DNA of 48,885 bases from a virus. This document shows, one piece after another, positions 11,597 to 44,703 of this stretch. The stretch's first letter is position 1. Every line of letters begins with the position of its first letter. The notes under the pieces were generated by a model. That model searched no databases. It was not told the DNA's origin and saw only the letters and a list, made by a program, of their open reading frames with translations. A program made the translations under genes and the position numbers. Location: the UHGV virus genome UHGV-0858861, one strand, 5' to 3'.

Positions 11597-14389
11597 ATGG
11601 CCAGCAATAAGAACTTTAAGCTGGCTTTTGAAATTGGCGGCAAAGTTGCCGCCTCTCTCCCCAAAAGTTTTACTACAGCTAATCAGGCTGTTGCTAAATT
11701 AAATGCAGAGCTTGCTGGATTAACGAAAGAACATGGGGAAATTCAAAAGCTACAATCTGTAAAAGTAAAGGTTGGACAGACTGCCCTCGAATATCATAAA
11801 GCTGCTGCTCGCGTTGAAGAGTTACAGAAGCAAATAAAAAACACGGCCAATCCAACCAGAGCGATGCTTCGTGACTTTGAGAAGGCAAAAACACATTCAT
11901 CAAATTTACGAGCATCACTACGTTCTCAGCGTGAAGAACTGGCCGCTTTAAAGTCTGCGTATCAGGGAGCTGATACATCTGCCAGAGCTTTAGCCTCAAG
12001 AGAGAAAGAGCTTAAAGCAAGCATTGATCGTAATCGTGAGGCTCAGGCCCGTAGCGTTGAGCAGGTTAACCGCTACAGAACGGCTTTGGCTTTAGCCAGA
12101 GCAAATGTTCAGCAAGTGAAAAAACAGCAGGAGGAACTTAACCGGGCATTAGAAAAACAACGTATTGATAAAATTAACAGCTATAAAAATGCGTTGGCTG
12201 AAGCACGGAAAAATGTTCTTGCAGTAAAACGTGCTCAGGAGGAGTTAAATCGCGCGTTGGAAAGGCAGCGTGAATTGAAGCGAGAGCATCTTGGTGAGGC
12301 AAAGAGTCAACTTGTAAGGTCAGGATTACAAACTGGTGCTGTAGCGGCTGGTGCATTTGCTGCTGCTAACAATGCAGCAAATTTCAATCGTGAAAACAAA
12401 ATGATTGGTCTTACGGCAGATATGAAGCCGGAAGAAGTTCAGGCGATGGGGCAGGCGATGCTTGTTACCGGAACGGCCACCAACCAGTTTGCATCTGATA
12501 TTCAGGCCGCTCAGGGTTTTCTCGTCGCTGCTGGGCAGGATTATAAAGAGGCTCAGGCGAATCTACTAACTATTGGGCGAACAGCTACAGCTACTGGCTC
12601 TGATATCCTCGATGTCTCGAAAGCATCATTTACATTAAGTGACTCATTGAAGATTGATCCATCTCAAATGAAGTCTGCAATGGGGATTCTGGTTCAGGCA
12701 GGGAAAGAGGGAAACTTTGAATTTAAAGATATGGCCAAAAATCTTCCTGTGCTTGGTGCTCAGTTCCAGGCATTAAAAATGGGAGGTAAAGAAGCCGCCG
12801 CGACGATGGGGGCAGCTTTGCAGATAGCTCGCAAAGGTGCTGCAACTTCGGATGAGGCTGCTAATAATATGAACAACTTTTTGGCGAAAATACTTTCCCC
12901 TGAAACACTAAAAAAAGCAAAGAAAAATTTCGGTGTAGATTTATATAAAATTGTCACAACAGCGCAGAAAAAAGGGAAGAATCCATTCGAAGCTGCAATG
13001 CATTCTGTCATGAAAATGACTAAGAACGGAGATCAGAAGTTACTTGGTGAGCTATTTGGCGATATGCAGGTTCAGAACTTTGTTCGTCCGATGATTCAAA
13101 ACTGGAAGGAATACCAGAGAATCAAAGCAACATCTCTTGGGGCTGGAAGTGCTGTTATTGACCGCGATTTTGCCAACATAACGAAAGACAATGCGGAGCG
13201 ATTGAAACAATTACGTATTCAGGCTAGCAATGCATCATTAAGTTTTGGTCAGGCCTTGCAACCAGCTTTGAATGCCGCGCTTAGTGTTTTGGTTCCGCTG
13301 ATTACAAAAATTAGTGAATTTGTAGCTAACAACCCCAATTTTGTGTCTCAGATTGTGATGGCGGCAGGTGCGTTTCTAACCATGAAAAGTGTGGTTATAG
13401 CGTGTAGGGTAGCTATGCTGGCTTTATCTGTAGCGACAAAGCTAACACCCTTCGGGTGGATTCAGATGGCTATATCTGCACTGGTTGCCGCAGGAATATT
13501 GCTCTATCAGAATTGGGATAAGATCAGAGATTATGCTGTCAGAGTTTGGCCTTCTGTTAAGGAATATACAGTTAAATCATTTGAGGCTATAAAAAACTTT
13601 ATCTTAAACTTTGACCTCAATGGATGGATTATATCTATGTTTGGTAAAGCATGGGATTATCTTTCCAACATAAACTGGAGTTCGGCAGGAGTAAGAATTT
13701 ACAGTACATTAATTAGTGCTTTTAAATGGATGGCTCCGCTTCCGTTCTTAATTAAAGCATTTAAACTTACAACAAATTACCTTTCTGGCATTAACTGGAG
13801 CGAAACAGGAAAGAAAATCATAGATACACTGGTATCTGTTTTTATGCGTTTTTCACCAGTTGGACTCTTTATAAGAGCATTCCAATCTGTAACGGCTTAT
13901 TTATCTGGAATAAACTGGAGTGAGTCAGGTGCAAAAATAATTGAGACGTTAATCACTGGGATAAAATCAAAAGCAAATGCTTTAATTAATGAAGTGAAAG
14001 GCGTTTTTTCTTCTGTACGTGAGTATTTACCGTTCTCTGACGCGAAAAAAGGTCCATTCTCACAGCTAACAAAGTCAGGTGGTGCAATAATGACTACTCT
14101 GGCATCAGGTGTTAGCAGGAATAACAGCTTACAGAATGCAATAGCAACCAAGTTCGGGCAATCAAATTTATCACCTCACGGGATATCTGCCGCCTGGACT
14201 TCTGGACCTCGCCAGAACGTTAACGCTGTGACTGGTGGAATAACCTATTCACCTGTAATCAATCTTCCGGCTGGTTCACCAAAGGAAACTGAGGCGGCAG
14301 CTAAAAGAGCATTAGATGCGGGATATTCTGATTTTGAGAAGAAATTGAGTGCTCATATGTTCCAACAACGGAGATTAAGTTTTGGATGA
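11597..14389 (+). CDS. tail tape measure protein
   Basis: 930-aa ORF; coiled-coil-like Ala/Gln/Lys/Arg-rich N-terminal half with internal repeats, hydrophobic segment, and repeated ...YLSGINWSE... motifs near the C-terminus. Confidence 0.85.
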   Translation: MASNKNFKLAFEIGGKVAASLPKSFTTANQAVAKLNAELAGLTKEHGEIQKLQSVKVKVGQTALEYHKAAARVEELQKQIKNTANPTRAMLRDFEKAKTHSSNLRASLRSQREELAALKSAYQGADTSARALASREKELKASIDRNREAQARSVEQVNRYRTALALARANVQQVKKQQEELNRALEKQRIDKINSYKNALAEARKNVLAVKRAQEELNRALERQRELKREHLGEAKSQLVRSGLQTGAVAAGAFAAANNAANFNRENKMIGLTADMKPEEVQAMGQAMLVTGTATNQFASDIQAAQGFLVAAGQDYKEAQANLLTIGRTATATGSDILDVSKASFTLSDSLKIDPSQMKSAMGILVQAGKEGNFEFKDMAKNLPVLGAQFQALKMGGKEAAATMGAALQIARKGAATSDEAANNMNNFLAKILSPETLKKAKKNFGVDLYKIVTTAQKKGKNPFEAAMHSVMKMTKNGDQKLLGELFGDMQVQNFVRPMIQNWKEYQRIKATSLGAGSAVIDRDFANITKDNAERLKQLRIQASNASLSFGQALQPALNAALSVLVPLITKISEFVANNPNFVSQIVMAAGAFLTMKSVVIACRVAMLALSVATKLTPFGWIQMAISALVAAGILLYQNWDKIRDYAVRVWPSVKEYTVKSFEAIKNFILNFDLNGWIISMFGKAWDYLSNINWSSAGVRIYSTLISAFKWMAPLPFLIKAFKLTTNYLSGINWSETGKKIIDTLVSVFMRFSPVGLFIRAFQSVTAYLSGINWSESGAKIIETLITGIKSKANALINEVKGVFSSVREYLPFSDAKKGPFSQLTKSGGAIMTTLASGVSRNNSLQNAIATKFGQSNLSPHGISAAWTSGPRQNVNAVTGGITYSPVINLPAGSPKETEAAAKRALDAGYSDFEKKLSAHMFQQRRLSFG

Positions 14390-18720: not shown

Positions 18721-20511
18721 GTGAGTAAATTATTATTTACGATGACTGACGCCGGGCGTCAGGAGTTGGTTAATGCCAACAAAACAGGAACAAATAAAGT
18801 TGAGATTGTTTCTGTTGGTTTAGGTAGTAGATATTATGTCACGTCAACCTCACAAACAAATATAACAGACGAAATAAAACGACTTACCACAATAGGTGGC
18901 AAAGTTGTTTCCCCTGATACAATTCATGTAACGGCGAAGGATGATAGTAAAGATGAGTATGTTGTCCATACAATAGGATTGTATACAAATAAGGGAAGGT
19001 TGTTTGCTGTATACTCGCAAGAACAAGCAATAATAAATAAAGCATCATCTACTATTGCTTTAATATCAAGTGACATAGCAATTAAGACTCTTGATACTAA
19101 AAATATTACATTTGGTGATATTGAGTTTATTAATCCTCCCGCGACCGAAACTGTTGTTGGGGTTGCAAGATTTGCTAATGAACAAGAAATTGATGCAGGT
19201 ACAGATGATTCCCTTGCTGTTTCAGCAAAGCGGCTTAAGCAAGCCATTGTGAAACATGAGCAATCACGTAATCATCCTGATGCAACTTTAACCTCAAAAG
19301 GCTTTGTTCAACTTAGCAGCGCCACCAATAGCACGTCTGAAACGCTTGCTGCGACGCCTAAGGCTGTTAAGGCAGCATATGACCTGGCTAACGCTAAATA
19401 CACCGCACAGGACGCTACCACGGCGCGAAAAGGGATTGTTCAGCTTAGTAGCGCAACTAACAGCGATTCTGAGACGCTGGCAGCAACGCCAAAGGCGGTA
19501 AAGGCAGCATATGACCTTGCTAACGCTAAATACACCGCACAGGACGCTACCACAGCGCGAAAAGGGATTGTTCAGCTCAGTAGCGCCACCAACAGCACGT
19601 CTGAAACACTGGCCGCGACATCAAAAGCTGTAAAGGTGGTAATGGATGAAACGAACAAGAAAGCGCCCCTGAACAGTCCGGCGCTGAGCGGAACACCAAC
19701 AACACCAACGGCGACTAAGGGAACGAATAACACTCAGATCGCAAGCACAGCTTTCGTTATGGCTGCGATTGCTGAACTTGTAGATTCGTCACCTGATGCA
19801 CTGAACACGCTGAACGAACTGGCTGCGGCGCTGGGCAATGACCCGAATTTTGCGACCACCATGACTAACGCGCTTGCGGGTAAGCAACCGAAGGATGCCA
19901 CCCTGACGGCGCTGGCGGAGCTTGCTACATCAGCAGATAAACTCCCATATTTTACAGGGGCAGATCGTGCCGCGTTAACCGCGTTGACAAGTGTTGGACG
20001 TGCCATTCTTGGTAAAACCAGCACTCAGGGCGTTCTTGATTACCTTGGTTTGGGAGAAGGCTCTGCATTACCGGTTGGTGTGCCTGTTCCGTGGCCTTCA
20101 GCCACACCACCGACAGGCTGGCTGAAATGCAATGGTGCGGCTTTTTCTGCTGAACAATACCCGGAACTGGCAAAGGCTTATCCGACAAATAAATTGCCTG
20201 ATTTACGCGGCGAATTCATTCGTGGCTGGGATGACGGGCGCGGAATTGATACCGGACGTGAGATGCTTTCATATCAGGAAGGCACTATCGTATCCGGGTT
20301 TGATGATAATGATACCGGAGATATCAGTTCACTCAGCTCTACACAATACGGATTTGGTGACACTTTAACCTCTAATCAATGGGCGTCCATAAGTGGCAAA
20401 AGGTGGATATTTGATGCATCCAACAAAGGTGCACAAAAATATGACTGGTGGGCTTATGTTTCAGCTCGCCCGCGCAATATTGCATTTAATTACATCGTGA
20501 GGGCCGCCTGA
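18721..20511 (+). CDS. tail fibre protein (constant N-terminal part plus current C-terminal variable cassette)
   Basis: 596-aa ORF; three tandem ~40-aa repeats (...VQLSSATNS.SETLAATPKAVKAAYDLANAKYTAQDATTARKGI...); 3' end lies inside the invertible segment. Confidence 0.8.
   Translation: MSKLLFTMTDAGRQELVNANKTGTNKVEIVSVGLGSRYYVTSTSQTNITDEIKRLTTIGGKVVSPDTIHVTAKDDSKDEYVVHTIGLYTNKGRLFAVYSQEQAIINKASSTIALISSDIAIKTLDTKNITFGDIEFINPPATETVVGVARFANEQEIDAGTDDSLAVSAKRLKQAIVKHEQSRNHPDATLTSKGFVQLSSATNSTSETLAATPKAVKAAYDLANAKYTAQDATTARKGIVQLSSATNSDSETLAATPKAVKAAYDLANAKYTAQDATTARKGIVQLSSATNSTSETLAATSKAVKVVMDETNKKAPLNSPALSGTPTTPTATKGTNNTQIASTAFVMAAIAELVDSSPDALNTLNELAAALGNDPNFATTMTNALAGKQPKDATLTALAELATSADKLPYFTGADRAALTALTSVGRAILGKTSTQGVLDYLGLGEGSALPVGVPVPWPSATPPTGWLKCNGAAFSAEQYPELAKAYPTNKLPDLRGEFIRGWDDGRGIDTGREMLSYQEGTIVSGFDDNDTGDISSLSSTQYGFGDTLTSNQWASISGKRWIFDASNKGAQKYDWWAYVSARPRNIAFNYIVRAA
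19297..19630 (+). repeat. tandem ~120-bp repeats (about 2.7 copies) within the tail fibre gene
   Basis: Near-identical DNA and protein repeats visible at about 19300-19420, 19420-19540 and 19540-19630. Confidence 0.8.
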
Positions 20512-22725: not shown

Positions 22726-22740
22726 ACCACGTAACGTGGT
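22726..22740. promoter_or_regulatory. repressor-type operator ACCAC-N5-GTGGT upstream of repA
   Basis: Perfect dyad AACCACGTAACGTGGTT at 22725-22741; same half-sites as the operators in the cI/cro intergenic region. Confidence 0.5.
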
Positions 22741-22782
22741 TATGATTGTGGGTGTCTGGTTGGAAACTGACCAGATATGGAA

Positions 22783-22900
22783 ACAAAAAGCCCGCAGATA
22801 AATCTGCGGGCTTCTTGCGACATCCACGGAAAACCAACAACAACAATCCATGGGCGCCTCGACAACTCCCATTATACGTTGGTTTTCCGTGGACGCAAGA
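22783..22900 (-). ncRNA. candidate CopA-like antisense RNA / structured repA leader
   Basis: Upstream of the probable repA start: hairpin AAGCCCGCAG-ATAAAT-CTGCGGGCTT (22791-22816), which on the minus strand would be followed by a T-run, and 15-bp inverted repeat CCACGGAAAACCAAC / GTTGGTTTTCCGTGG (22825-22839 / 22879-22893). Confidence 0.3.
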
Positions 22901-22908
22901 GCGAACAT

Positions 22909-23757
22909 ATGGATAGACCAATGCCGTCTCTACGTTCCGCTTACGTTTGTAATTTGTCGCCGGAGTTCCAGCCTCCAAAGCACCATACGCACAAGCTGCC
23001 GCTAGTGTTATCTGATGCTTTACAGCGCATTAATGGTCGTGATCTTACGTGTGAGGTTGCGTTCTACGTTAATCAGCCGTCAGAGCGGAAGCGCCGGATA
23101 AACGAGCATCGTCGTCGGGCGATTAATGCTGTGATTGCTGCGATTTTGCACCATGTAAACATCATTTCTAAGCGGGTTCTGGCCAGTGCTGAGGCGTTGG
23201 CTGATTTTTGCGGCCTGTCTACCGTATCCGAAGCTGGGAACAAGTCTATAACACGCTGTACAAGGGCGTTGTCGCAACTGAAAGCGTTAGGTTTTATTGA
23301 TTATGAACGTCGCTGGGATCGGGTGAATAAACAGTATTGGCCAGCGAAAATAGAGATTCGTGATCAACTGCTGGAAACCGTTGGTATTACTGAACAAGCA
23401 TGGAGACGTGCGGTTAGCCAGAAACTTAATTACTTCAATGCGAAGAATAGCGAACGGCTTAAAAAAGCGATAACGGAGGCTGATTATAAGCGTATTGTTA
23501 TTCAGGAGCAGATGGAGAATGTATGGCGTCAGAGGAAGACAGCCAGAGAGATAAAGGCAAAACAGAAAGCAGCGGAGAGAGCTGCGCGTCTTGTTCAGGA
23601 AAAGGGAGAGGCCGAACTTCGTCATCAAATCACTAGAGAGGTTAGCCAGGAATTTGCTGATGGCATGTATCCTGGTGCTGACCTTGCATATTTACGATCC
23701 CTCGTTGAGCAGCGTTATAACAGGTTAAGAAAGACCAGGAAATCACTCCAACATTAA
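22909..23757 (+). CDS. repA: plasmid replication initiator RepA (IncFII RepA1-like)
   Basis: ORF (track 22777-23757; probable start ATG 22909 after the structured leader) with RepA1-like central motif (KSITRCTRALSQLKALGFIDYE) and basic C-terminus. Confidence 0.6.
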   Translation: MDRPMPSLRSAYVCNLSPEFQPPKHHTHKLPLVLSDALQRINGRDLTCEVAFYVNQPSERKRRINEHRRRAINAVIAAILHHVNIISKRVLASAEALADFCGLSTVSEAGNKSITRCTRALSQLKALGFIDYERRWDRVNKQYWPAKIEIRDQLLETVGITEQAWRRAVSQKLNYFNAKNSERLKKAITEADYKRIVIQEQMENVWRQRKTAREIKAKQKAAERAARLVQEKGEAELRHQITREVSQEFADGMYPGADLAYLRSLVEQRYNRLRKTRKSLQH

Positions 23758-24180: not shown

Positions 24181-24388
24181 GAAATAAGGCCTACGGCCGG
24201 GCTTTGCAGGAGGAAGGGGCGAGCCTTATCAATAAACGTCGATAAATACGCACACAGTAGCCATCAGAACGCGATAAAACGTAAGAAACATCATTTCCTA
24301 TTAGACATAGAAAACTTGTCTTATACGCAATGTAGTAAATTTCTATTGCCACATAGGAAAAGATTTCCTACCATCGTAGATATAATAA

Positions 24389-24688
24389 ATGGAGATGGTT
24401 ATGGATAAAGATACTGTTTTAAAAATGTTGAATCCGGCTTGTTTAAAAAAAGCGGATGAATGGGAATCTCCTACATGTGGAGAAGTTCGGGCAGTCATTG
24501 GCCTGACTGGAATGAGCGGCTCGCAGTTGGCCAAAAAACTAGGCTTAAAAGATAGTCGCAATGTTCGCAACTGGCAGATGTTAAAGGAGTCCACATCCAG
24601 ATCCAGCATTCCGTATGCAGCCTGGGCGCTGCTGTGTTACTTCGCTGGGTTAGGGTTAATCTTCATTGATAACAAAACAGATGTTTGA
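24389..24688 (+). CDS. HTH-domain protein (XRE/DUF1870-like)
   Basis: 99-aa ORF (probable start 24401 after a GGAG SD) with HTH-like segment (MSGSQLAKKLGLKDSRNVRNWQ). Confidence 0.4.
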   Translation: MEMVMDKDTVLKMLNPACLKKADEWESPTCGEVRAVIGLTGMSGSQLAKKLGLKDSRNVRNWQMLKESTSRSSIPYAAWALLCYFAGLGLIFIDNKTDV

Positions 24689-25866: not shown

Positions 25867-25880
25867 TCAGAACGAATGAT

Positions 25881-25908
25881 AAGCCCCTGTTGCAAAGGGG
25901 CTTTTTTG
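25881..25908 (+). terminator. rho-independent terminator after the higBA-like pair
   Basis: Hairpin AAGCCCC-TGTTGCAA-AGGGGCTT followed by TTTTTT. Confidence 0.6.
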
Positions 25909-25913
25909 TGCTC

Positions 25914-26029
25914 ATAGAATTATATAATTATATATTTATATAAAAAGTGCTTTACGGGTGGGAAAAAATTTCCTAAGGTTATACCCGAAACCGAGCGATA
26001 CCCGCCCTGGTTAAACCGGAGATAACCCG
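25914..26029 (+). promoter_or_regulatory. conserved promoter + 5' leader module, copy 1
   Basis: AT-rich palindromic box (TATATAATTATATA), -35-like TTTACG, dyad GGAAA-AAA-TTTCC in spacer, -10-like TAAGGT, then a conserved 50-nt leader with GGAG SD running to the ATG at 26030; near-identical to copies at 35973 and 44044. Confidence 0.55.
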
Positions 26030-26410
26030 ATGAGCATGATTAAAATCCGCAAAAACGCTTTCCTTAAAATTCAAACTATCCTAGCTGGTTCTGTTGGCGT
26101 GATTTGCCGTTCTTCTTCAAGCCGCATCGATGACGGCTACGATGATGAGTACCGTGTGTCCTCGTGCGATGAGGCTTTAACCTGGCTGAAGGAGAATCAG
26201 GAACGTGCCCAGGTATATCTGGAAACAGAGAACGGCAATCAGATGCTGCGTATTAGCGGTCGTTATGGATTTGAAACTACATTCATGGCCTATTTTAATC
26301 AGGCTTACTTTGACAAGGAGCTGGCCTGGTACACTGATCGCATGAGCAAAAGCGAGCCAGCCCCGATTACACCGCCGAACAATAAACCATTTTTATTCCT
26401 CGTTAAGTAA
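26030..26410 (+). CDS. hypothetical protein, first gene behind module copy 1 (candidate anti-defence protein)
   Basis: 126-aa ORF with no recognisable motif; followed by an Aca2/DUF1870-like HTH gene. Confidence 0.4.
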   Translation: MSMIKIRKNAFLKIQTILAGSVGVICRSSSSRIDDGYDDEYRVSSCDEALTWLKENQERAQVYLETENGNQMLRISGRYGFETTFMAYFNQAYFDKELAWYTDRMSKSEPAPITPPNNKPFLFLVK

Positions 26411-26440
26411 ACACAATGCGCAAAGTGTCATTTTGACACT

Positions 26441-26746
26441 TTGCGAGTGTTAATATTGTGCGAGGAGGATGCTATGACGGGTTATGAATTGAAATTATGG
26501 CGTCGTGGGATGAACTGGACGCAGGAGCGAGCCGCCGAAGAATTTGGGATATCGTTGGCTACATATAAGCGATATGAGAAGGGGGAGCCGCCGAGGGTCA
26601 TTGAGATGGCCATTCGCGTTCTGTCGTTTGACGATATGGTGAAGGATCTTTCACACCTTGATAAAGACGCGATTCTGTTAAGGCTGCAAACCCTTGTATG
26701 GGAAAAGGTTAAAGTGTCGTCAGAATTGGAACAAGGGATCAAATGA
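26441..26746 (+). CDS. HTH regulator, Aca2/YdiL (DUF1870)-like
   Basis: Probable start at 26474 (MTGYELKLWRRGMNWTQERAAEEFGISLATYKRYEKGEPPRVIE...), pattern closely resembling YdiL/Aca2-family N-termini as recalled; last gene of a short operon. Confidence 0.45.
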   Translation: MRVLILCEEDAMTGYELKLWRRGMNWTQERAAEEFGISLATYKRYEKGEPPRVIEMAIRVLSFDDMVKDLSHLDKDAILLRLQTLVWEKVKVSSELEQGIK

Positions 26747-26794
26747 TCCTTTACGGATCGTTTTATGGTGGTGTAATGTAAGCGCCAGAAAGAC

Positions 26795-26820
26795 AAAAAC
26801 CGCCTTGCCGGGCGGTTTTC
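26795..26820. terminator. bidirectional-looking rho-independent terminator
   Basis: A-run, hairpin CCGCC-TTGCCG-GGCGG, T-run. Confidence 0.55.
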
Positions 26821-27304
26821 AGTCTGAAATTTAAATCTTGCTTGGTAGGCTGGATTTAAAAAGACACCTCTTGATTGGGGCGGCTTTCTTGCGTCTAAAG
26901 ATAATCAAATCTTTTTGCGCCTGCAACCCCTTTTTTACTGGTGCCTGTTTCAGACTCACGCTCGCGTCGTTGTCTTTGCCACTTCGTTGGGTTCGGTGTT
27001 TTTGGGCGGAGTGGCGCGCGGGTATGCGTACAAGGGGAAAGTGTGCTGACGCAAGCCAGGAACAGCGATCTAAACTAAGTCGAGTCTGAGAAAGGCAGGA
27101 GTGCGACAACTCGCCTGTGCTCAATGAGCAGAAGAAGGTATATCAGACGACCAATGGCATGATTGTGGGCCACAGGGCGCACACGGCGGCGAAGCATTGG
27201 AAACGATGTGGAGCTATCTGGTGGCATGAGTTCCGGTACTCGATCTCGAGCTTTTTTTGATGCTTTTGAGAAGGGGCCGGAACTCCGGTAAAGGGCACCC
27301 TGTA

Positions 27305-27320
27305 TGGGGGGAGGGGGGGT
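27305..27320. repeat. poly-G tract (G6-A-G7) upstream of membrane-protein gene
   Basis: Sequence GGGGGGAGGGGGGG about 60 bp upstream of the ATG at 27382. Confidence 0.8.
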
Positions 27321-27381
27321 TGTGTCTAAAGGAAGATCTAATACGATATTGCTTTACCCTTATATCTAAAAGGAGATTTCT

Positions 27382-28017
27382 ATGGGGATGCTGGTGGCGT
27401 TTATTATTAGCCTGATTTTGTGTTTCTTCGTAGTTCGTGGCGCATATCGGAAACAATGTGCCTCGTCTTCTGGTGGTAAGTTCAAAGCTGTTTTAGTGAG
27501 TGGCTTTCTCGGGATTGCTACTTTTGTAGTTGTTAATACTCTTGCGGCTGTGACCTTGATCCCAGAAGACCCCAACACTGCGGCTACTACCGGAGCAGCT
27601 TTTGATGGTGTGACCGTAGATAAGTTTAAGCAGTTATATAATGATGACCTTGAAGGTATCGCTACATCAGGAAAATCCACCTCCACTATAAGAATTAAGT
27701 CAGTTAAACAAGGTAACAACACCGTTGAATTTGCCATCAATTCATCTGTTAACGGTCGGGCTAGAGTTGATAAGGATGGGAAGATTTCAGAGTTATTATG
27801 GCGAGTATCTAAGCCTAGCTCTGATTCCTTGCTTTCTATGGCCGTAGCTGTTGAAGTCTTGGATGCATCAAGTGATAGAGACACAGTGATCGCGCAGTTA
27901 GAGCAGATTGTTAAATCTGATACGCAGAAAGCTGAGTTTAAGACTAAGAGAGGCGAGTATTACGTTTCTCGTGACAAATCAGGGCACGTGTCGCTACTGA
28001 TTACACCGAAATATTAA
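27382..28017 (+). CDS. membrane protein with two N-terminal TM helices and a soluble domain (candidate exclusion/abortive-infection-type function)
   Basis: 211-aa ORF; hydrophobic segments at about residues 3-20 and 35-57; good SD (AAGGAG) upstream. Confidence 0.45.
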   Translation: MGMLVAFIISLILCFFVVRGAYRKQCASSSGGKFKAVLVSGFLGIATFVVVNTLAAVTLIPEDPNTAATTGAAFDGVTVDKFKQLYNDDLEGIATSGKSTSTIRIKSVKQGNNTVEFAINSSVNGRARVDKDGKISELLWRVSKPSSDSLLSMAVAVEVLDASSDRDTVIAQLEQIVKSDTQKAEFKTKRGEYYVSRDKSGHVSLLITPKY

Positions 28018-28026
28018 GAATTGAAG

Positions 28027-28053
28027 AAGCGCCCAAATCGGGCGCTTTGTTTT
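28027..28053. terminator. bidirectional terminator between convergent genes
   Basis: Hairpin GCGCCC-AAATC-GGGCGC flanked by A-rich and T-rich runs. Confidence 0.55.
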
Positions 28054-29194
28054 ATGGTTTTGCACCTGCGGCCAGTTTATCCGCAGATATCTTTATCAGT
28101 TCCTGTAGTGTCCTGGCTGGTAGGTTTGCATCCAGAACGCTGAGTATGCTGTTGTGATCCGCCTGGTCGACTACTTTGCCTGTCGGTGGTAGTAGCTTGA
28201 GCTGAGGATTCAGGTCCTCGTCAAAGCTGATAAGTGCTCTGGCGTTCCTGAGCAGATCAAGAAGTAAGGCTGATATCACATTTTCCTGAGTCATTGCTGG
28301 CAGATTTAGCGCCGCTTTGGTTTTCCCTGTTGCCTTGTCAAACTCCTTGATTAGTTCCTTCCTGTAGTTCGGTTCCGTTAATAGCCGATTATGCTCTGTT
28401 GCCGCGCGGATAATCGTTTTTTCCTGGTACAGTCGTTTAGCCAGATCTCGCTCGTACTGTGTTTTTAACACGCTGCTGATAGCGTTAAAGGCTTCAATGT
28501 AGGCCAGCTTGATATCCTTCACGCCTGGACCGTCGATACTTTCCATGAGCAAGGTAAATCCGTCTTTTGTCATGCGATATATTGTTATTTCGCGGTCGCT
28601 TCCTTCCAGCGGTCGTTGTTCTTTAAAGAAGTGACGCGCCGCAGCCGTGCGAGGAATGCGTAACGCATCGATGGCCATAACGATGGAATTGTTTGTGGTG
28701 CTGAATGCCTGAGCAACATCGGCTGAGGTTGTGAGTGGCTCGTTGTTGCACACCTTAATGTAAAACATCGGTTTGGCGTTGAGCGTATCGACAACCTCAC
28801 GAGCATTGTTTGGCGAGACGGTAACGGTCGCGGCCGTTTGCGCGTTCTGGTTGAAATAGCAGTCTTCCAGCCGTTCGAACACATCCCACGCTTGGTTAGT
28901 TTCAAGCATTTTGGCGTGACGTGCAGCCCCGCGTTCTGTCCAGAGAATTAGGGAGCGGGCATTTTTACCAACTAACCCGATTGTTTCGGGTCTGTTCTTG
29001 AACTCGCGTAATTCGTTTTTTTCAATTTTAAAGTAATGCTTTCCGGCTACGAATCGCGTCGTGTTGTTCAGAAAGTTATCAGAAATGTTTTTGATTTTTG
29101 TTCCGTATAACTGCGCCAGAAGTTCACTAGTGATAACGGGGATCTGGTTATGCAGGATAGGCTGTAGGGTGTTAACGGTCGGAAGCGTTTTCAT
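28052..29194 (-). CDS. antirepressor-like regulatory protein (ORF6N-like N-terminus + Rha-like domain)
   Basis: 380-aa ORF; architecture of phage antirepressor/Rha regulators; coupled to a small upstream ORF. Confidence 0.6.
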   Translation of the reverse strand: MKTLPTVNTLQPILHNQIPVITSELLAQLYGTKIKNISDNFLNNTTRFVAGKHYFKIEKNELREFKNRPETIGLVGKNARSLILWTERGAARHAKMLETNQAWDVFERLEDCYFNQNAQTAATVTVSPNNAREVVDTLNAKPMFYIKVCNNEPLTTSADVAQAFSTTNNSIVMAIDALRIPRTAAARHFFKEQRPLEGSDREITIYRMTKDGFTLLMESIDGPGVKDIKLAYIEAFNAISSVLKTQYERDLAKRLYQEKTIIRAATEHNRLLTEPNYRKELIKEFDKATGKTKAALNLPAMTQENVISALLLDLLRNARALISFDEDLNPQLKLLPPTGKVVDQADHNSILSVLDANLPARTLQELIKISADKLAAGAKP

Positions 29195-29382
29195 TTTGCA
29201 CCTCCCATAACTACTTTGGTTACGAGGGAGATTTTTGCGTCAGAAACAGCGTTATCGTTGCTGGCGATGCGCATAGCTTCGCGCTCGATGATTTCAGCCA
29301 GGCGTAATTTATCGGCGTATGAGGCTTTCTTGAGAAGGAGCTTTACGAGGTTGACGTAATAGTCATGGGGTAAGTTTGTCAT
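29191..29382 (-). CDS. small protein in icd-like position upstream of antirepressor
   Basis: 63-aa ORF whose stop overlaps the antirepressor start; SD AAGGGA upstream. Confidence 0.4.
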   Translation of the reverse strand: MTNLPHDYYVNLVKLLLKKASYADKLRLAEIIEREAMRIASNDNAVSDAKISLVTKVVMGGAK

Positions 29383-29439
29383 TGTGATGATTCCCTTAAA
29401 GGTTAAGGATACTCACCACCGTCAGGTTCCAATCATTGG

Positions 29440-29570
29440 GTGGTGAGACGTGCAGGGTTGGAACTACCGGACACAATGACGAACCGGCGAGTCTTACGAC
29501 TCCCCCGCACGCCCCACCATAATTTGGGGGTAGCAGTGCTTTACGCATAAAAAAACCGCTAACGCGGTAT
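29440..29570 (-). ncRNA. candidate c4-like antisense RNA region of an immI-like locus
   Basis: Minus-strand leader carries two hairpin-loop copies of GAUUGGAACC (29424-29433 and 29590-29599) flanking a segment with the complementary GGUAGUUCCAACC (29455-29470), plus a minus-strand terminator hairpin near 29550-29570. Confidence 0.3.
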
Positions 29571-29680
29571 GCGCCATTGTGTCTACGGGGTTCCAATCCC
29601 GGCCGTAGATTTTGCTACGGCTCGGAAAGTGTCCACCAATGGCGCATTCATGTCAATACGGCGGGATTTTAACAGACTAA

Positions 29681-30418: not shown

Positions 30419-30744
30419 CGTGCTGATCGGATTCGCGGTCCTTTCAGCATAACGTCGTTGTACTAATACAACCACGCAAGCACAAACAGCAACTACATTC
30501 TTACCCAACTGAGGTGAATAGTCCACTATTCATATAAAAAAATTTAGCTCATTAGCTCATGCAAAATGAAGGTTTTTAACTTATTTACGTGTAATCTTAT
30601 GTAATAAAAGCGTTTTTTATTCCTTCATTATGAAGGGTATGACGTGTAATATGGCTTGGGGCCTTTCCGCCGATTCGCACCCGGGCACTGACTTTCAGGA
30701 AAGGATTATCCACTTGCCGTACCACGCAGGCACAAACAGCGTGC

Positions 30745-30927
30745 TTGCTCTCGCGTCATTTTCGTCGGTGGGGATGCCGTGAAACGGCCTGTAAGGGCCA
30801 CACAATGAAAAAATACTACATGTGTATTTTTATCGTTGTTACTGGAGCTTTGTTTACGCCACATGGGGAGGGTTGGAAGATTACTGATAACGCTCTGAAT
30901 GTGACGATAAACATTAGCAGCAAGTAG
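30745..30927 (+). CDS. small hydrophobic peptide (about 40 aa from the ATG at 30805)
   Basis: MKKYYMCIFIVVTGALFT... with one predicted TM helix, SD AAGGG upstream, strong terminator immediately downstream. Confidence 0.3.
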   Translation: MLSRHFRRWGCRETACKGHTMKKYYMCIFIVVTGALFTPHGEGWKITDNALNVTINISSK

Positions 30928-30932
30928 CGATT

Positions 30933-30956
30933 AGGCCCCTTCGGGGGCCTTTTTTA
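30933..30956 (+). terminator. strong rho-independent terminator
   Basis: Hairpin AGGCCCC-TTCG-GGGGCCT followed by TTTTTT. Confidence 0.7.
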
Positions 30957-31177: not shown

Positions 31178-31426
31178 TTACTTCTGGTTGTATTGAGCCT
31201 TGAGTAACTCAAAAGATTTTGTCAGCACTTCTTTCAATGACATATCCATTGAGCTGGCGAACGTTTTGTACTCGCGTTTAAATTCAGGGTCGACGTTAAA
31301 CGCCATTTGTGCCCCACCTGATTTGGTTCTGGTTGGCGTTTCAGTCGGGTCGAAAACCTGCGGTTGTTCGATCGATGGCGGTACGCCTTTGCTGTTCTTC
31401 TTTGGTGGTTTTGATGGTGCGGCCAT
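31178..31426 (-). CDS. parG: ParG-like partition protein (ribbon-helix-helix)
   Basis: 82-aa ORF directly downstream of the ParA-type ATPase; C-terminus resembles the ParG RHH region; unstructured basic N-terminus. Confidence 0.5.
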   Translation of the reverse strand: MAAPSKPPKKNSKGVPPSIEQPQVFDPTETPTRTKSGGAQMAFNVDPEFKREYKTFASSMDMSLKEVLTKSFELLKAQYNQK

Positions 31427-31469: not shown

Positions 31470-32138
31470 TTACGCGGCAGTAGTCAGAGCCTCAAGCTGG
31501 TTGATAATCCCCTGAATAACGTCGTCTGCCTTTTTGCGTGGCGCAACGTATGAGCACTCAATGAGGCTTAAGCCCTTATCCTGAGCTTTGCTCAGAGCTG
31601 GCTTGTGGGGAATGTACTTATCAACAACAAAGTATGGCGTATTAGCCAGGTACTCTTGGGCTTCAATATAGTCAGCTTCGTTTTCAGCCGCGCCGGAAAA
31701 CACCATGCAAATTTTCTTGATTGGTACACCCTTTTTAACGATGCCGTGAGCAGTGTTAACGGTGGTTTCTAGGTCATCGGTAGAGAATCTGGTTGGCAAA
31801 ATAACCATATCCAGAAATTCAGAGAGCTTCGGTACTGATTCAGATGCGTAGGCACCGCCATCGACGATAACCAGGTCGTATACTTCTGATTCGATGATTT
31901 TCTGGACTTGTGATGGTGTGCCGCACGGCTGCGCCGCGATTGCTGGTTCGATATTGTTGGCCATTCTGCGTTGTACCCAACGCGTTACCGTTCCGTTAAG
32001 CACATCCATATCGATCAGGCATACATTCCAGCCAGCCTTTGCATAAGCAACTGCTAAAGCACGGGCAATTGTTGATTTGGTTACGCCGCCTTTTCCGTTG
32101 AAAATACCTACAGAGATAGTCATTTGTCGAGACTCCAT
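31470..32138 (-). CDS. parA: ParA/ParF-type partition ATPase
   Basis: 222-aa ORF with deviant Walker A (GKGGVTKST). Confidence 0.8.
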   Translation of the reverse strand: MESRQMTISVGIFNGKGGVTKSTIARALAVAYAKAGWNVCLIDMDVLNGTVTRWVQRRMANNIEPAIAAQPCGTPSQVQKIIESEVYDLVIVDGGAYASESVPKLSEFLDMVILPTRFSTDDLETTVNTAHGIVKKGVPIKKICMVFSGAAENEADYIEAQEYLANTPYFVVDKYIPHKPALSKAQDKGLSLIECSYVAPRKKADDVIQGIINQLEALTTAA

Positions 32139-32270
32139 GTGTTTGGTTATATAATTCTATAAATCTATATTTATAGAACGAGGTAAGCATAACCAACTTT
32201 TTGGCGGATGAAAAGCGTTTTATATAATTATATAAATCTATAATCATATAAGCGGGCGTTAGCCCGCTTG
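32139..32270. promoter_or_regulatory. AT-rich palindromic iterons upstream of parF (candidate centromere/operator)
   Basis: Repeated TATAAATCTATA and TATATAATTATATA motifs at 32157-32185 and 32225-32250; related boxes at 31436-31468 and upstream of the conserved promoter modules. Confidence 0.45.
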
Positions 32271-32683: not shown

Positions 32684-32698
32684 ACCACAAAGCGTGGT
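32684..32698. promoter_or_regulatory. repressor-type operator-like dyad (or hairpin) between cI-like gene and the 124-aa gene
   Basis: AACCAC-AAAGC-GTGGTT followed by a T-run on the plus strand. Confidence 0.4.
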
Positions 32699-33433: not shown

Positions 33434-33552
33434 TACCACATTTAGTGGTTTTCACATGGTAAGACGAGAGGTGGACCACAAATAGAAGGTTATTTTTTGT
33501 TTCGCCCATTGAAAAACTCACGATGTGTGGTTTTAATACCACATATCGTGGT
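33434..33552. promoter_or_regulatory. operator cluster in the cI/cro-like divergent promoter region
   Basis: Dyads ACCAC-ATTTA-GTGGT (33434-33448), degenerate CTCAC-GATGT-GTGGT (33517-33531) and ACCAC-ATATC-GTGGT (33538-33552). Confidence 0.6.
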
Positions 33553-35972: not shown

Positions 35973-36091
35973 AAATCTATAAATATATAATTATAGATTT
36001 ATATAAAAAGTGCTTTACAGGTGGGAAAAAATTTCCTAAGGTTATACCCGAAACCGAGCGATACCCGCCCTGGTTAAACCGGAGAAATCTG
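35973..36091 (+). promoter_or_regulatory. conserved promoter + 5' leader module, copy 2
   Basis: Near-identical to 25914-26029 and 44044-44162 from the AT-rich box through TTTACA, GGAAAAAATTTCC and the leader to the SD; ATG at 36092. Confidence 0.55.
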
Positions 36092-37159
36092 ATGAATAAA
36101 CAAGTAATTATTTCTGACTGGATCAACAACCCTAACAGCCTGTTAAGCACTGATACTGGCTACCTATTACGCCATGTTAATGGTCGTATGGTCAAAAGCG
36201 ATGAGCACGAAACCTTTTTCTTTGTTGAAGATGATGGGCGTATCTATGAGGATGGTTACTCTTATGAAGCCCAAACTGGTTGTATCCCTGCGGAGCTGGT
36301 GGACGTAACAGAAGATCTGCGCAAAGCATGGCTTGAACAGCAGCAGCGCGGAGATGATTACGTAAACACCTATCAGGAACGCCAGAACGCGCGTCTTGCC
36401 CGATATATTGCTCGTGCAGAAAAAGCCAGAAAAGAAGGTGCGGTAGCGCATAAGCGAGCGCATGACCTGTTGGATGTGATCCCGTTAGGCCAGCCGATTT
36501 TAGTTGACCATTATAGCGCGAAAGGCCATCGCCGCCGTTTGTCTAAAGCTGATGCGTTATTAAGAAAAGCGTTTGTTGAATGCGAAAGTAAAGCATCACA
36601 CTACGAGAGCAAAGCCGCAGGTGTTGGTCGTAATGGAATTTCGTCTGATGATCCTGATGCGCTATTTAAGTTGCTTCGTAAGCTGCAAGGCTGCATGAAG
36701 TCACACGTCAAAATGAAGGCCGCAAATAAGGCCATTCGCAAATACAAAAAAGACCAATTACAGCAGCTTTCTGCATTAATCGATCTCAGGTTTACAGAAA
36801 GCGAAGCCAAAGAGTTACTGGTCGGAGATTTCTGTGGGCGCATCGGATTCCCTTCATACGTACTGAGCAACAATAACGCCGAGATCAAACGACTACAGAG
36901 CCGTATTAAGGAGCTTGAATCGGTCAAGTCTGTAACAGGAGCACAGCGCGAAGAATACGACGACTTTTCTATGGAGATAGATCCAGAGGATAACCGCATC
37001 CTGTTTTATTTCCCTGGCAAACCAGAGGCAAACATTCGTTCGCTGCTTAAATCACGCGCCTTTAAGTGGAGTCCAACCCGTAATGCATGGGTTCGCAAGA
37101 TTACTCCAAATGCCCTGGCTGATGCCCGATATCTGAAAGAATCGCTATTGAAAGCCTGA
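36092..37159 (+). CDS. hypothetical protein with DUF3560-like C-terminus (candidate early/anti-defence protein)
   Basis: 355-aa ORF directly behind module copy 2; C-terminal motif ILFYFPGKPEANIRSLLKSRAFKWSPTRNAWVRK. Confidence 0.4.
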   Translation: MNKQVIISDWINNPNSLLSTDTGYLLRHVNGRMVKSDEHETFFFVEDDGRIYEDGYSYEAQTGCIPAELVDVTEDLRKAWLEQQQRGDDYVNTYQERQNARLARYIARAEKARKEGAVAHKRAHDLLDVIPLGQPILVDHYSAKGHRRRLSKADALLRKAFVECESKASHYESKAAGVGRNGISSDDPDALFKLLRKLQGCMKSHVKMKAANKAIRKYKKDQLQQLSALIDLRFTESEAKELLVGDFCGRIGFPSYVLSNNNAEIKRLQSRIKELESVKSVTGAQREEYDDFSMEIDPEDNRILFYFPGKPEANIRSLLKSRAFKWSPTRNAWVRKITPNALADARYLKESLLKA

Positions 37160-37215
37160 CAGTAAGCCTACGGCGGGATGTCTCCCGCCGTATATAGAAT
37201 TATATATTTATATAA

Positions 37216-37518
37216 ATGTATAAGGACGCCTCGACAATGAAACGCAAAATTATTAACCCCCAAGATGTGATTAATTTCCTGACCGATCACCCATGTTCAA
37301 AAGTGGACGTAATCGCGGAGCACATTGGTGTGTCGCAGAACTCTATGCGTTGCAGACTGAGAAGCATGGTTGCCGAAGGACAGATAACAACCAGGAAAAT
37401 AAATGGTTGCCTGTACTACTCCGCTAAACCGGAATTGCCATTTGGCATGAATTCTAACTCCATGTTGTTTAACACCTTATTAGCCAAAGTTAAGCCGTTG
37501 AGAGGGGCTGTGGCATGA
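37216..37518 (+). CDS. winged-helix DNA-binding protein
   Basis: ORF (probable start 37236) with wHTH-like segment (VDVIAEHIGVSQNSMRCRLRSMVAEGQI); AT-rich box upstream at 37190-37215. Confidence 0.4.
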   Translation: MYKDASTMKRKIINPQDVINFLTDHPCSKVDVIAEHIGVSQNSMRCRLRSMVAEGQITTRKINGCLYYSAKPELPFGMNSNSMLFNTLLAKVKPLRGAVA

Positions 37519-42785: not shown

Positions 42786-42909
42786 TACCGCCTGTGATTG
42801 GGTAAAGCCCATCTACCTGACTGATCACGATATCGATGTTATGGACCGCCAGACAAAGAAAGATATTCTGGCTCATAACAGGGCATGGGAAATCAACTGC
42901 CTCAAGTAA
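42700..42909 (+). CDS. o-spanin lipoprotein (Rz1-like), partly embedded in the Rz-like frame
   Basis: 69-aa ORF in alternate frame with lipobox-like LIASC. Confidence 0.45.
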   Translation: MYSRVLTIWLMTMLIASCGSRGSVPVVVDTACDWVKPIYLTDHDIDVMDRQTKKDILAHNRAWEINCLK

Positions 42910-43078
42910 TATATATTTCTATAATTATATAAATATATAGTTACAACATTCTATGCGCTTTTCTCATGAGCGCACGCATCAACCATGTTTGTCTGATATG
43001 CCGCCGCGCCCAAAAATCCTGAATTTATTGGCTGGGATTTTCGTGCGCGGCGCCACACCAGACAAACAGATCAAATAT

Positions 43079-43154
43079 GGCCCCTTAGCTCAGTGGTTAG
43101 AGCAGGCGACTCATAATCGCACGGTCATCGGTTCAAATCCGGTAGGGGCCACCA
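43079..43154 (+). tRNA. tRNA with CAU anticodon (elongator-type; ileX-like tRNA-Ile2 or tRNA-Met)
   Basis: 76-nt cloverleaf folded by hand: 7-bp acceptor stem (GGCCCCT/AGGGGCC), D-arm GCTCAGTGGTTAGAGC, anticodon loop CTCATAA, T-loop TTCAAAT, discriminator A and encoded CCA; 1:72 G-C pair excludes initiator type. Confidence 0.85.
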
Positions 43155-43462: not shown

Positions 43463-44050
43463 ATGGAGGCAATTGCATTGTTTAATCTGATTTATGCAGA
43501 TCCCCCCTGGGAATACAAAGACAAGTGTAAGGATGGGAATCGTGGCGCTGGTTTTAAGTATCCAACGATGAAAGCTGAGGAGATTGCTCGTATTCCTGTC
43601 TGGCAGCTTGCTAATCCTGAATCGTGTTTGTTGGCCATGTGGTGGGTTCCGACTCAGCCAGAAGAAGCGTTGCTGGTGGTGAAAGCATGGGGATTCAGGC
43701 TGATGACCATGAAGGGCTTCACATGGAACAAATGTGGTAGCCGACAACCAGATAAGCTGGTGATGGGGATGGGGCATATGACTCGTGCAAACAGTGAAGA
43801 TTGCTTGTTTGCAGTGAAAGGCAAACTACCGACACGTCTTGATGCGGGGATCATTCAGTCGTTTACATCGCCTCGTCTGGAGCATTCTCGGAAGCCTGAT
43901 GTGGTCCGTGACAAGCTGGTAAGGCTGTTAGGTGATGTTCCTCGTATTGAGCTGTTTGCTCGCGGTGATTTACCTGATGGCTGGCATGGCTGGGGCAACC
44001 AGTGCAATGGAGGTATCCAATTGCATGATGCTCTCTGGCAAGTGTCATAG
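43463..44050 (+). CDS. MT-A70-family DNA N6-adenine methyltransferase
   Basis: 195-aa ORF with the catalytic DPPW motif (IYADPPWEY). Confidence 0.75.
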   Translation: MEAIALFNLIYADPPWEYKDKCKDGNRGAGFKYPTMKAEEIARIPVWQLANPESCLLAMWWVPTQPEEALLVVKAWGFRLMTMKGFTWNKCGSRQPDKLVMGMGHMTRANSEDCLFAVKGKLPTRLDAGIIQSFTSPRLEHSRKPDVVRDKLVRLLGDVPRIELFARGDLPDGWHGWGNQCNGGIQLHDALWQVS

Positions 44051-44162
44051 AATTATATAATTATATATTTATATAAAAAGTGCTTTACAGGTGGGAAAAA
44101 ATTTCCTAAGGTTATACCCGGAACCGAGCGATACCCGCCCTGGTTAAACCGGAGATAACCCG
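44044..44162 (+). promoter_or_regulatory. conserved promoter + 5' leader module, copy 3
   Basis: Near-identical to copies 1 and 2 (one substitution in the leader); ATG at 44163. Confidence 0.55.
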
Positions 44163-44432
44163 ATGAAAGTACAAGACCGTGAAGTAGTAAAAAACCTCCT
44201 GCAATACCTGACCTCAAAAAATCTGACTGGCAGCGTTGAGTTCCGTGAAGCGTTAAAACATTTCAACGTCACTACGGTTTATCGTTGGGAAAACAAACAT
44301 TCTGAAAGACCGTATGTGGTGGATGTTTTTGCGCCTGATATTGAGTGCGGTTTTGAGCGCCATTCATTCAAAAAGAAACATTCCGCTGATGTTTTTTGTG
44401 AGGTTGTATGTGCGGCAGGAGATGATGAGTGA
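44163..44432 (+). CDS. hypothetical protein, first gene behind module copy 3
   Basis: 89-aa ORF, no recognisable motif. Confidence 0.35.
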   Translation: MKVQDREVVKNLLQYLTSKNLTGSVEFREALKHFNVTTVYRWENKHSERPYVVDVFAPDIECGFERHSFKKKHSADVFCEVVCAAGDDE

Positions 44433-44629: not shown

Positions 44630-44703
44630 ACCGTAACGATAACGAACAACGAGCCTCGGCAATTGCCGGGGCTTTTTTACATCCAGACAAAGGAGAACAT
44701 GGG

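Follow-up and report, generated by a model that had tools for sequence, protein, structure and literature searches.

Three copies of a KorC-type promoter and leader module in a phage-plasmid genome

The UHGV virus genome UHGV-0858861, whose full 48,885 nucleotides are referred to here as the window, is that of a phage-plasmid and carries three near-identical copies of a promoter-plus-leader module, each of which ends at the start codon of a different gene. Judged by its sequence, the core of this module is a sigma-70 promoter of the IncP klc/kle class, with homology extending through the -35 hexamer, the operator, the leader hairpin and the ribosome site. We propose that each module is probably a portable, doubly repressible cassette, in which a promoter with a KorC operator, an array of sites for the partition protein and a leader hairpin would be joined as parts of an IncP-like kil-kor circuit. 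For comparison, three diverged relatives were analysed as a whole, namely a Salmonella plasmid (L015), a Serratia marcescens plasmid (L016) and a plasmid of Serratia sp. JSRIV006 (L033).

Promoter and operator of the repeated module

A repeat finder returned one 122-nt family in the window (25912-26033, 35975-36096 and 44045-44166) with 88-98% identity, which places the copies within 1-3 nt of where a first-pass annotation of the sequence had seen them. In an alignment of the three, similarity sets in at an AT-rich box (AT box) and ends at the ATG, and it includes the leader. The three copies share a 31-nt core, GGTGGGAAAAAATTTCCTAAGGTTATACCCG, which the window has nowhere else (positions 25957, 36020 and 44090, always on the plus strand; 0 expected in 100 shuffles). 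All modules contain the AT box, a -35 hexamer, a 17-nt spacer with the dyad GGAAA-AAA-TTTCC, a -10 hexamer TAAGGT and a leader of ~50 nt, with GGAG 7-8 nt ahead of the ATG. The elements named in the first-pass annotation were all found in this way, except that the -35 hexamer TTTACA, present in two copies, reads TTTACG in copy A.

The first genes behind the modules encode proteins of 126 aa, 355 aa (DUF3560, primase-like region) and 89 aa. They had been taken to be unrelated, and indeed a blastp comparison among the three gave no mutual match at E<=10, and they belong to different PHROG families. The AT box of module C overlaps the stop codon of an MT-A70 methylase gene. Since E. coli and Serratia relatives have different cargo genes behind their modules, and since terminator-like hairpins close the operons, the modules behave as portable cassettes. 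The modules were rightly described as promoter-plus-leader cassettes, each at the head of its own short operon in the plasmid and early region. A degenerate module pattern found only four chance matches among the GTDB representative genomes, in unrelated phyla.

In all three modules the dyad forms part of a 17-bp TRGG-N9-CCTA palindrome in the 17-nt spacer, and the last two bases (TA) of this operator, TGGGAAAAAATTTCCTA, are the first two of the -10 hexamer. Its outer TAGG/CCTA is common to operators of IncP, IncL/M and Aeromonas plasmids. A blastn search with one of the Serratia modules unexpectedly gave a match to the korC-kleH intergenic region of the IncP-1gamma plasmid QKH54, in which GTTTAGCTAAAT, a KorA operator, is followed by TCTTGC, TAGGACAAAATGTCCTA, TTATT, GGCCGGGCATGTTGCCCAGGTC, AAAACCGGAGATACCATCCG and ATG. 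The order of parts in QKH54 (-35, TAGGACAAAATGTCCTA, -10, hairpin, AAACCGGAGA, ATG) equals that in the module. A plasmid search with the QKH54 region gave 1,480 records. The plasmids bearing the cassette include IncP-1 plasmids, where it precedes klcA, an IncP-like plasmid with two copies (ahead of a DUF905 gene and an ardB gene), IncL/M pOXA-48-like plasmids (ahead of a JAB-domain gene) and an Aeromonas plasmid. In all plasmid examples TAGG-N9-CCTA lies between -35 and -10 and is followed by the same hairpin, and the similarity reaches 5' of the -35 (aaagtgcttgacaggtTAGGAC in IncP-1 klcA, aaagtgctttacaggTGGGAA in the module). At the place where the phage-plasmid has its AT box, the IncP promoters carry the KorA operator GTTTAGCTAAA. 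Relatives of the window have TATGGT, TAATAT or TAGTAT as the -10 hexamer instead of TAAGGT.

The window also encodes a candidate for the protein that reads this operator. The product of the gene at 24389-24688, publicly named 'hypothetical protein', is 39% identical to KorC of QKH54 over 92 aa (E 4e-18). When the QKH54 proteins were compared by phmmer with all open reading frames of four phage-plasmids, one KorC homologue was found in each (E 2.5e-12 for the window), and orthologues are present in L015, L016 and L033. The promoter of the korC-like gene has neither an AT box nor a hairpin leader, but it carries a perfect operator, TAGGAAAAGATTTCCTA, at the same promoter position, and L015, L016 and L033 have this promoter layout too. 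The same operator in korC's own promoter implies autoregulation. By sequence, the window therefore holds four operators, those of modules A, B and C and that of the korC-like gene. KorC in RP4 is a repressor of the klcA, kleA and kleC promoters, and in pOXA-48, where KorC is needed for plasmid maintenance, its own operon has the KorC site between the -35 and -10 hexamers (PMC12365149). In RA3, KorC is the main global regulator (PMC7414963). A further operator-like sequence, GGAATATATTTCC at 20594, was treated as a chance occurrence; it lies inside a tail-fibre assembly gene and has no promoter context. In the Aeromonas plasmid (L040, 369-417), two tandem KorC-type operators precede an antirestriction gene, one of them being the canonical TAGGGCATAATGCCCTA.

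The suggestion that the modules form a co-regulated, plasmid-mode regulon agrees with these data, and the modules do look co-regulated. The idea of one regulator that acts on both DNA and RNA does not, since the module has two DNA elements with two different candidate proteins. Two of the regulators considered earlier, among which the KorC homologue had not been, were rejected. The helix-turn-helix (HTH) protein encoded at 26441, proposed to bind the dyad, is Xre/RstR-like and has no similarity to KorC. The CI-like repressor has its likely operators elsewhere: the dyad ACCAC-N5-GTGGT occurs only at 22726-22740, 32684-32698, 33435-33449 and 33538-33552 (four sites, 0.12 expected), and none of these is in a module. 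The cI/early intergenic region holds two of the sites; a third shortly precedes repA, and the fourth precedes a 124-aa gene beside parA. They look like a separate CI-type regulon that would also reach the plasmid replication gene.

Partition-locus arrays and the leader hairpin

The AT box consists of four contiguous 8-bp units with the consensus WTMTATAW. As had been described, it is part of all three modules, but it is not restricted to them, as five further copies are present in the window. A position matrix recognises exactly eight arrays, with 38.6-44.7 bits and none scoring in between, whereas the best score in 100 randomised sequences was 8.6 with the full array matrix. As a safeguard against circular reasoning, a matrix was also trained on P1-P3 alone, the three boxes of the par region. 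With this matrix the other five boxes were the top five remaining sites (38-43 bits), the next site having 7.7 bits and the random maximum being 14.8. Both the Yersinia phage and Salmonella have arrays at the same eight positions.

Read on the minus strand, the par region comprises, in this order, P1, TTTTCA, 17 nt, TATGCT, P2, GGAG, parA, P3, GAGGGG and a gene for an 82-aa protein, which starts 44 nt downstream of parA. To go by this order of elements, the layout is that of an autoregulated type Ib partition operon, and the promoter, itself putative, appears to share the box-to-(-35) geometry of the modules. ParA matches Pfam CbiA, ParA and MipZ as well as phrog_164 ('ParA-like partition protein') and is of the small Walker type that lacks an N-terminal DNA-binding domain. 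We propose that the AT boxes are sites of the 82-aa protein as a ParG-like centromere-binding protein. The ParG-like protein had been named as a candidate regulator before, and for the AT box it is a good one. The omega protein of pSM19035 provides a precedent, because its arrays of 7-bp repeats overlap three promoters and double as centromeres, with a functional minimum of four contiguous repeats (PMC9499535). ParG itself binds arrays of 4-bp boxes with 4-bp AT spacers (PMC3130281).

The Serratia lineage offers a comparison of the arrays and the protein. Its units differ (TTAAATAA, TTAAAGAA and ATCTTTAA), and a matrix built from the Serratia par boxes finds the three Serratia modules and two more sites. 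At the unit centre, the dinucleotide is TA throughout the window (32 of 32 units) and in 29 of 30 units of Salmonella, but AA or TT in 20 of the 23 par and module units of Serratia, where TA occurs once. The 82-aa proteins of the window and of the Serratia lineage are 41-44% identical, and their presumed beta-strands read QMAFNV and AMNFNV, respectively. The boxes thus change in step at the par locus and in the modules, which fits one par-encoded protein that reads all arrays. An AlphaFold2 monomer model of the 82-aa protein has a disordered lysine- and proline-rich N-terminus, an extended segment and helices at 47-59 and 62-81 (predicted local distance difference test >90). A HMMER search found about 55 small homologues, of which, once aligned, 16 of 46 match Pfam RHH_10 and 10 of 46 Antitox_RHH, with weak E-values. 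Model and matches are suggestive, and the protein is probably of the ribbon-helix-helix type.

Of the boxes outside modules and par region, box D lies ahead of a MarR-like gene (phrog_1687). This box with its short leader (GGACGCCTCGACAATG; 37192-37251) is much like box P2 with the parA leader (GGAGTCTCGACAAATG; 32123-32178), and the arrangement is also kept in Serratia (L016, 38060-38106).

With respect to the leader, its conservation within the genome had been read as a sign of control at the RNA level. This is weak evidence, because the module copies within one genome evolve in concert and are homogenised. From -35 to ATG, the three E. coli copies are 96-98% and the three Salmonella copies 100% identical, whereas identity between the species is 84-89%. 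Direct evidence of exchange between copies comes from a metagenomic contig (L004), in which gene C lies behind the B-type variant of the ribosome site. Homogenisation is not universal, though, as copy 3 of Serratia has 86% identity to its orthologue in the other plasmid but 76-82% to its own paralogues. The real evidence on the leader is the comparison across plasmid families.

For this comparison, 22 distinct leaders from E. coli, Salmonella, the two Serratia phage-plasmids and IncP-1, IncP-like, IncL/M and Aeromonas plasmids were aligned with MAFFT. Their conserved element is an 8-bp helix with a one-base bulge and a loop of 5-7 nt. Standard pairing is seen in 92% of the cells of this alignment, a share that falls to 8-47% once the 3' partners are shifted by 1-3 columns, and RNAalifold found the same helix unguided. 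Both sides have changed at three pairs (G-C to A-U twice, C-G to U-A once), and one further pair is G-U, A-U and G-C across leaders. G-U pairs occur on the sense strand only, which points to an RNA structure rather than a DNA palindrome. The loop varies freely (AUACC, AUAGU, AUGAC, AUGUC). The helix begins 10-11 nt after the -10 and should hence lie within a few nt of the transcript's 5' end; as it is not followed by a U-tract, it is not a terminator or attenuator. Downstream of it, AAACCGGAGA is kept in the Serratia leaders and in the kleH leader of IncP-1gamma QKH54, while the other conjugative-plasmid leaders retain only ACCGGAGA. A whole-window scan with Rfam 15 put no family on the modules at gathering thresholds, and for 25880-26080 Rfam gave no leader match at E<=1, the sole match there (E 0.34) being on the upstream terminator hairpin.

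5'-terminal stem-loops shield E. coli mRNAs from RNase E-dependent decay. The leader hairpin most likely stabilises the mRNA or fixes the efficiency of translation. It is conceivable, though we regard it as rather doubtful, that hairpin and ACCGGAGA, which occur across about 1,500 plasmid records as well as this phage-plasmid family, together constitute a cis-acting RNA element of 'establishment' genes under KorC control, one that is widely conserved and has so far gone undescribed. Such an element would add a second, post-transcriptional layer (mRNA stability or a trans factor) that shapes the burst of expression upon entry, and the partition arrays would tie this burst to segrosome assembly.

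The proposed circuit and its alternatives

If the modules are doubly repressible cassettes, a dimer of the KorC homologue would occlude RNA polymerase at the operator in the three modules and in its own promoter. The 82-aa partition protein would bind all eight arrays, which would serve as dispersed centromeres and as operators, comparable to omega of pSM19035 and KorB of RK2. With the array at about -43 to -74, occupancy by the protein would lower promoter activity, possibly by masking an UP-element-like tract, and when unoccupied, the AT-rich array may itself do the work of an UP element and make up for the weak -10. The transcript would begin 2-5 nt before the stem-loop and continue into the invariant GGAG ribosome site, such that hairpin and ribosome site could set mRNA life and translation. 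In a naive cell, where neither repressor would be present, the three short operons would fire until KorC and the partition protein have built up and shut them off. Gene conversion would keep the three copies alike. Such a burst would be akin to the zygotic induction of klcA and the kle genes in RP4, which for klcA amounts to about 120-fold in transconjugants (PMC7314908).

Several observations weigh against such a circuit. The -10 hexamer TAAGGT is weak, with 3 of 6 consensus positions, and was not called by a generic promoter scan. No KorA homologue was found among the open reading frames of the four phage-plasmids (best E 0.52), and the circuit is therefore not a full copy of that of IncP. 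PADLOC, Pfam, NCBIfam and PHROGs were uninformative on the cargo genes and did not reveal their functions. The profile of the homologues of the 82-aa protein gives an in-register alignment to ParG of TP228 (1P94) at no better than E 0.88; the single sequence found nothing in the PDB by phmmer, and Foldseek returned nothing meaningful. The AT box could instead be bound by the 124-aa protein encoded upstream of parA, by the MarR-like protein or by host H-NS or IHF. As for the hairpin, its covariation is modest, the double changes stem from few independent lineages, one pair of the helix is an A-C mismatch in the E. coli and Salmonella type (7 of 22 leaders), and z-scores from single-sequence folding are weak (-0.7 to -2.4).

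A dedicated regulator at the RNA level, be it a translational repressor, a small RNA or an antiterminator, that targets the leader and co-controls the three operons is unlikely. This idea draws on the fact that the hairpin and ACCGGAGA are conserved with covariation from IncP-1, IncL/M and Aeromonas plasmids to the phage-plasmids, beyond what a promoter needs. However, the window contains no candidate RNA-binding protein and no complementary small RNA, Rfam is blank on the leader, the missing U-tract speaks against an attenuator and the freely varying loop against a sequence-specific loop ligand, and the identity within the genome is explained by gene conversion. We also consider it quite unlikely that the AT box is an unspecific UP element, or intrinsically bent DNA bound by H-NS or IHF, that recurs by chance. 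Its 32 bp of nearly pure A+T do lie where UP elements act, and the box is full of -10-like hexamers, which the promoter scan caught. Yet the arrays number exactly eight, all keep a strict 8-bp register with an invariable TA at the unit centre, and no intermediate scores occur. No promoter follows three of the arrays, namely P3 (within the par operon), D (13 nt ahead of an ATG) and E, and the Serratia units have shifted in step at the par locus and in the modules.

Lambdoid morons and T4-type PeSL cassettes are self-contained promoter-gene-terminator units within a longer operon, and repeated promoters can serve as recombination substrates. By analogy, the modules might be recent duplications of one promoter through recombination, without a shared regulatory purpose, which would account for copies of the same genome being more alike than orthologous copies of different genomes, for gene C of L004 behind a B-type ribosome-site variant and for the different cargo of E. 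coli and Serratia relatives. This is nonetheless very unlikely, because the E. coli, Salmonella and Serratia lineages, whose modules are only 62-72% identical, have all retained three copies at the same places in the backbone, and nearly all of 67 plasmid records have three. Moreover, loop and spacers drift but the arms of the operator, the stems of the hairpin and the register of the box do not, and a cognate repressor gene that has an operator of its own is never missing. Unlike morons and PeSL cassettes, the modules have two operator types of plasmid-maintenance regulators and a plasmid-derived core. A reading of the dyad as the site of a phage-encoded activator, which would turn on the modules as middle or late promoters of the lytic cycle, has next to nothing to recommend it, even though the -10 is weak and modules B and C lie inside the long rightward early transcription unit. 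A dyad in a 17-nt spacer that overlaps the -10 has the geometry of a repressor site, it is homologous to the operators of KorC, a characterised repressor (PMC12365149, PMC7314908), and no module precedes the structural genes at 1-21 kb.

Among known systems, the cassettes as proposed here come closest to the KorC systems of IncP-1 (RK2/RP4, QKH54), IncU (RA3) and IncL (pOXA-48). Common to both are a KorC homologue, a 17-bp palindromic TAGG-N9-CCTA operator between -35 and -10, several near-identical cassettes that head different small operons, an autoregulated repressor gene and sequence homology from 5' of the -35 through operator, leader hairpin and ribosome site. The differences are that the host is a tailed phage replicating as a plasmid rather than a conjugative plasmid, that neither a KorA nor a KorB homologue was found here and the position of the KorA operator is taken by an AT array of 4x8 bp, that the cargo is unrelated to the klcA/kle genes, and that the operator centre is A/T-rich (GGAAA-N3-TTTCC) instead of GGGCA or GGACA. 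In its sequence features the module is thus of the KorC/kil-kor kind, minus the KorA/KorB arm.

The upstream array plausibly belongs to the centromere-operator type of omega/delta (pSM19035) and ParG/ParF (TP228). In these systems, too, a small Walker ParA is followed by a small basic-tailed protein, and the sites, which are candidates in the window, are contiguous short repeats, 8 bp here as compared with the 7-bp heptads of omega and the 4+4-bp boxes of parH (PMC9499535, PMC3130281). Likewise, the arrays overlap the system's own promoter and other promoters, and four repeats are the minimum for omega (PMC9499535). In contrast, the unit WTMTATAW is itself palindromic, and the eight arrays are distributed across 18 kb of the phage genome, with several lying away from any obvious promoter. 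The linear phage-plasmid N15 also has several partition sites among phage genes, namely the four SopB sites IR1-4 (PMC7205306). It differs in that it uses type Ia SopA/SopB with a helix-turn-helix ParB and single 16-bp palindromes, as opposed to the type Ib repeat arrays here, three of which are fused to a KorC-type promoter.

There is growing recognition that phage-plasmids carry resistance genes, and the control of expression in their plasmid state is little understood. If the circuit is as we propose, the KorC branch of an IncP-type kil-kor system has been taken over and the KorA operator swapped for arrays of the element's own partition protein, which would be a clear case of regulatory modules moving between conjugative plasmids and phages. 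It would also give functional names to two 'hypothetical' genes, as a KorC-like repressor and a ParG-like centromere-binding protein, and define a small regulon of genes probably expressed on entry into a new host, which would be candidates for establishment, anti-defence or 'kil' functions. The leader hairpin, in turn, would be a candidate RNA element common to many clinically important plasmids, including pOXA-48-like ones.

The phage-plasmid and its relatives

The window is a complete temperate myovirus of ~48.9 kb, 98% identical to the Yersinia phages vB_YpM_39, 41 and 44, and the element has been deposited 67 times as a non-mobilizable plasmid of ~48 kb from E. coli, Salmonella and Klebsiella, nearly always with three copies of the module. 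Of 5,426 complete E. coli genomes, 72 contain it, with plasmids accounting for 207 of 209 places; the family is also known from Salmonella, Klebsiella, Serratia and the Yersinia phage isolates. These plasmid records, together with the encoded RepA, toxin-antitoxin pair, ParA, CI-like repressor and P1-type c4/ant region, identify the window as a phage-plasmid. It does not belong to the pSLy3 group of phage-plasmids, which is SSU5-like and much larger (PMC7969092). A literature search found no paper on vB_YpM_39, 41 or 44, and none that connects KorC with phage-plasmids. The features of the window are collected in Table 1.

Table 1. Features of the window, grouped by module, KorC, partition and plasmid functions (strand in parentheses)
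Feature	Position	Description
Module A, whole	25912-26032 (+)	
Module A, AT box	25912-25943 (+)	four 8-bp units TCATAGAA TTATATAA TTATATAT TTATATAA; 43-44 bits by octamer matrix, also by par-only matrix
Module A, promoter	25951-25979 (+)	-35 TTTACG 25951-56; 17-nt spacer; -10 TAAGGT 25974-79
Module A, KorC-type operator	25959-25975 (+)	TGGGAAAAAATTTCCTA; from operator scan
Module A, leader hairpin	25989-26012 (+)	AACCGAGCG-AUACC-CGCCCUGGUU; from leader alignment and pair counts
Module A, ribosome-binding stretch and ATG	26013-26032 (+)	AAACCGGAGAUAACCCG, then ATG of 126-aa gene (26030-26410)
Terminator-like hairpin	28026-28048 (+)	ends module-A operon (26030-28017)
Module B	35975-36094 (+)	AT box 35975-36006; -35 36014-19; operator 36022-36038; -10 36037-42
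Module B, 3' half		hairpin 36052-36075; GGAG 36081-84; ATG 36092 of 355-aa DUF3560 gene
Module C	44045-44165 (+)	AT box 44045-44076; -35 44084-89; operator 44092-44108; -10 44107-12
Module C, 3' half		hairpin 44122-44145; GGAG 44151-54; ATG 44163 of 89-aa gene
Terminator-like hairpin	44651-44674 (+)	ends module-C operon (44163-44629)
Promoter of korC-like gene	24346-24374 (+)	TTGCCA; 17-nt spacer; TACCAT
Fourth operator	24354-24370 (+)	TAGGAAAAGATTTCCTA, perfect; in korC-like promoter
KorC homologue	24389-24688 (+)	open reading frame from 24389; likely start ATG 24401, 95 aa
Box P1	32220-32251 (-)	immediately upstream of -35 of par promoter
Putative par promoter	32186-32214 (-)	TTTTCA 32214-32209; 17-nt spacer; TATGCT 32191-32186; read from sequence
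Box P2	32147-32178 (-)	between par promoter and parA ribosome site
ParA, small Walker type	31470-32138 (-)	likely start ATG 32123 after GGAG; 217-222 aa
Box P3	31439-31470 (-)	between parA stop codon and 82-aa gene
82-aa candidate centromere-binding protein, ParG-like	31178-31426 (-)	directly after parA
Box D	37192-37223 (+)	after hairpin of module-B operon; 13 nt before ATG of MarR-like gene 37237-37518
Box E	42909-42940 (+)	about 140 nt upstream of tRNA-Met gene 43079-43151
RepA, IncFII type	22777-23757	
RelE/HTH toxin-antitoxin pair		annotation taken from relatives
CI-like repressor		encoded in window

Compared with the window, L033 has RepA, KorC, ParA, CI, the early-gene backbone and the three modules in common, and its tail genes are those of a lambda-like siphovirus in place of the contractile tail. 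This comparison points to a wholesale swap of structural modules. A 28.5-kb conjugative E. coli plasmid (L042, NZ_CP037908.1) carries parA, a small downstream gene and the RelE/HTH toxin-antitoxin pair, and also keeps the first ~48 nt of the module, which are interrupted by IS26 beside a cfr resistance gene. A plasmid-backbone block is thus common to the phage-plasmid and to conjugative plasmids.

The P1-type immunity I region of the window lies on the minus strand (28052-29621). There, Rfam recognises a C4 antisense RNA (29436-29524) and an isrK-like RNA (29549-29621) upstream of the gene for a 380-aa Ant/Rha antirepressor (28052-29194). In the plasmid-maintenance region, a full-length match to the ryfA RNA family was found at 30657-30955 (+) with 134.6 bits. 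The first bases of the window (1-55) recur as an exact 55-nt direct repeat inside the portal gene (3923-3977), which may be an artefact of assembly or of the window's end. Finally, the tail-fibre gene holds three tandem 132-bp repeats (19296-19691), and the tape-measure gene a 120-nt periodic repeat (13654-13938).

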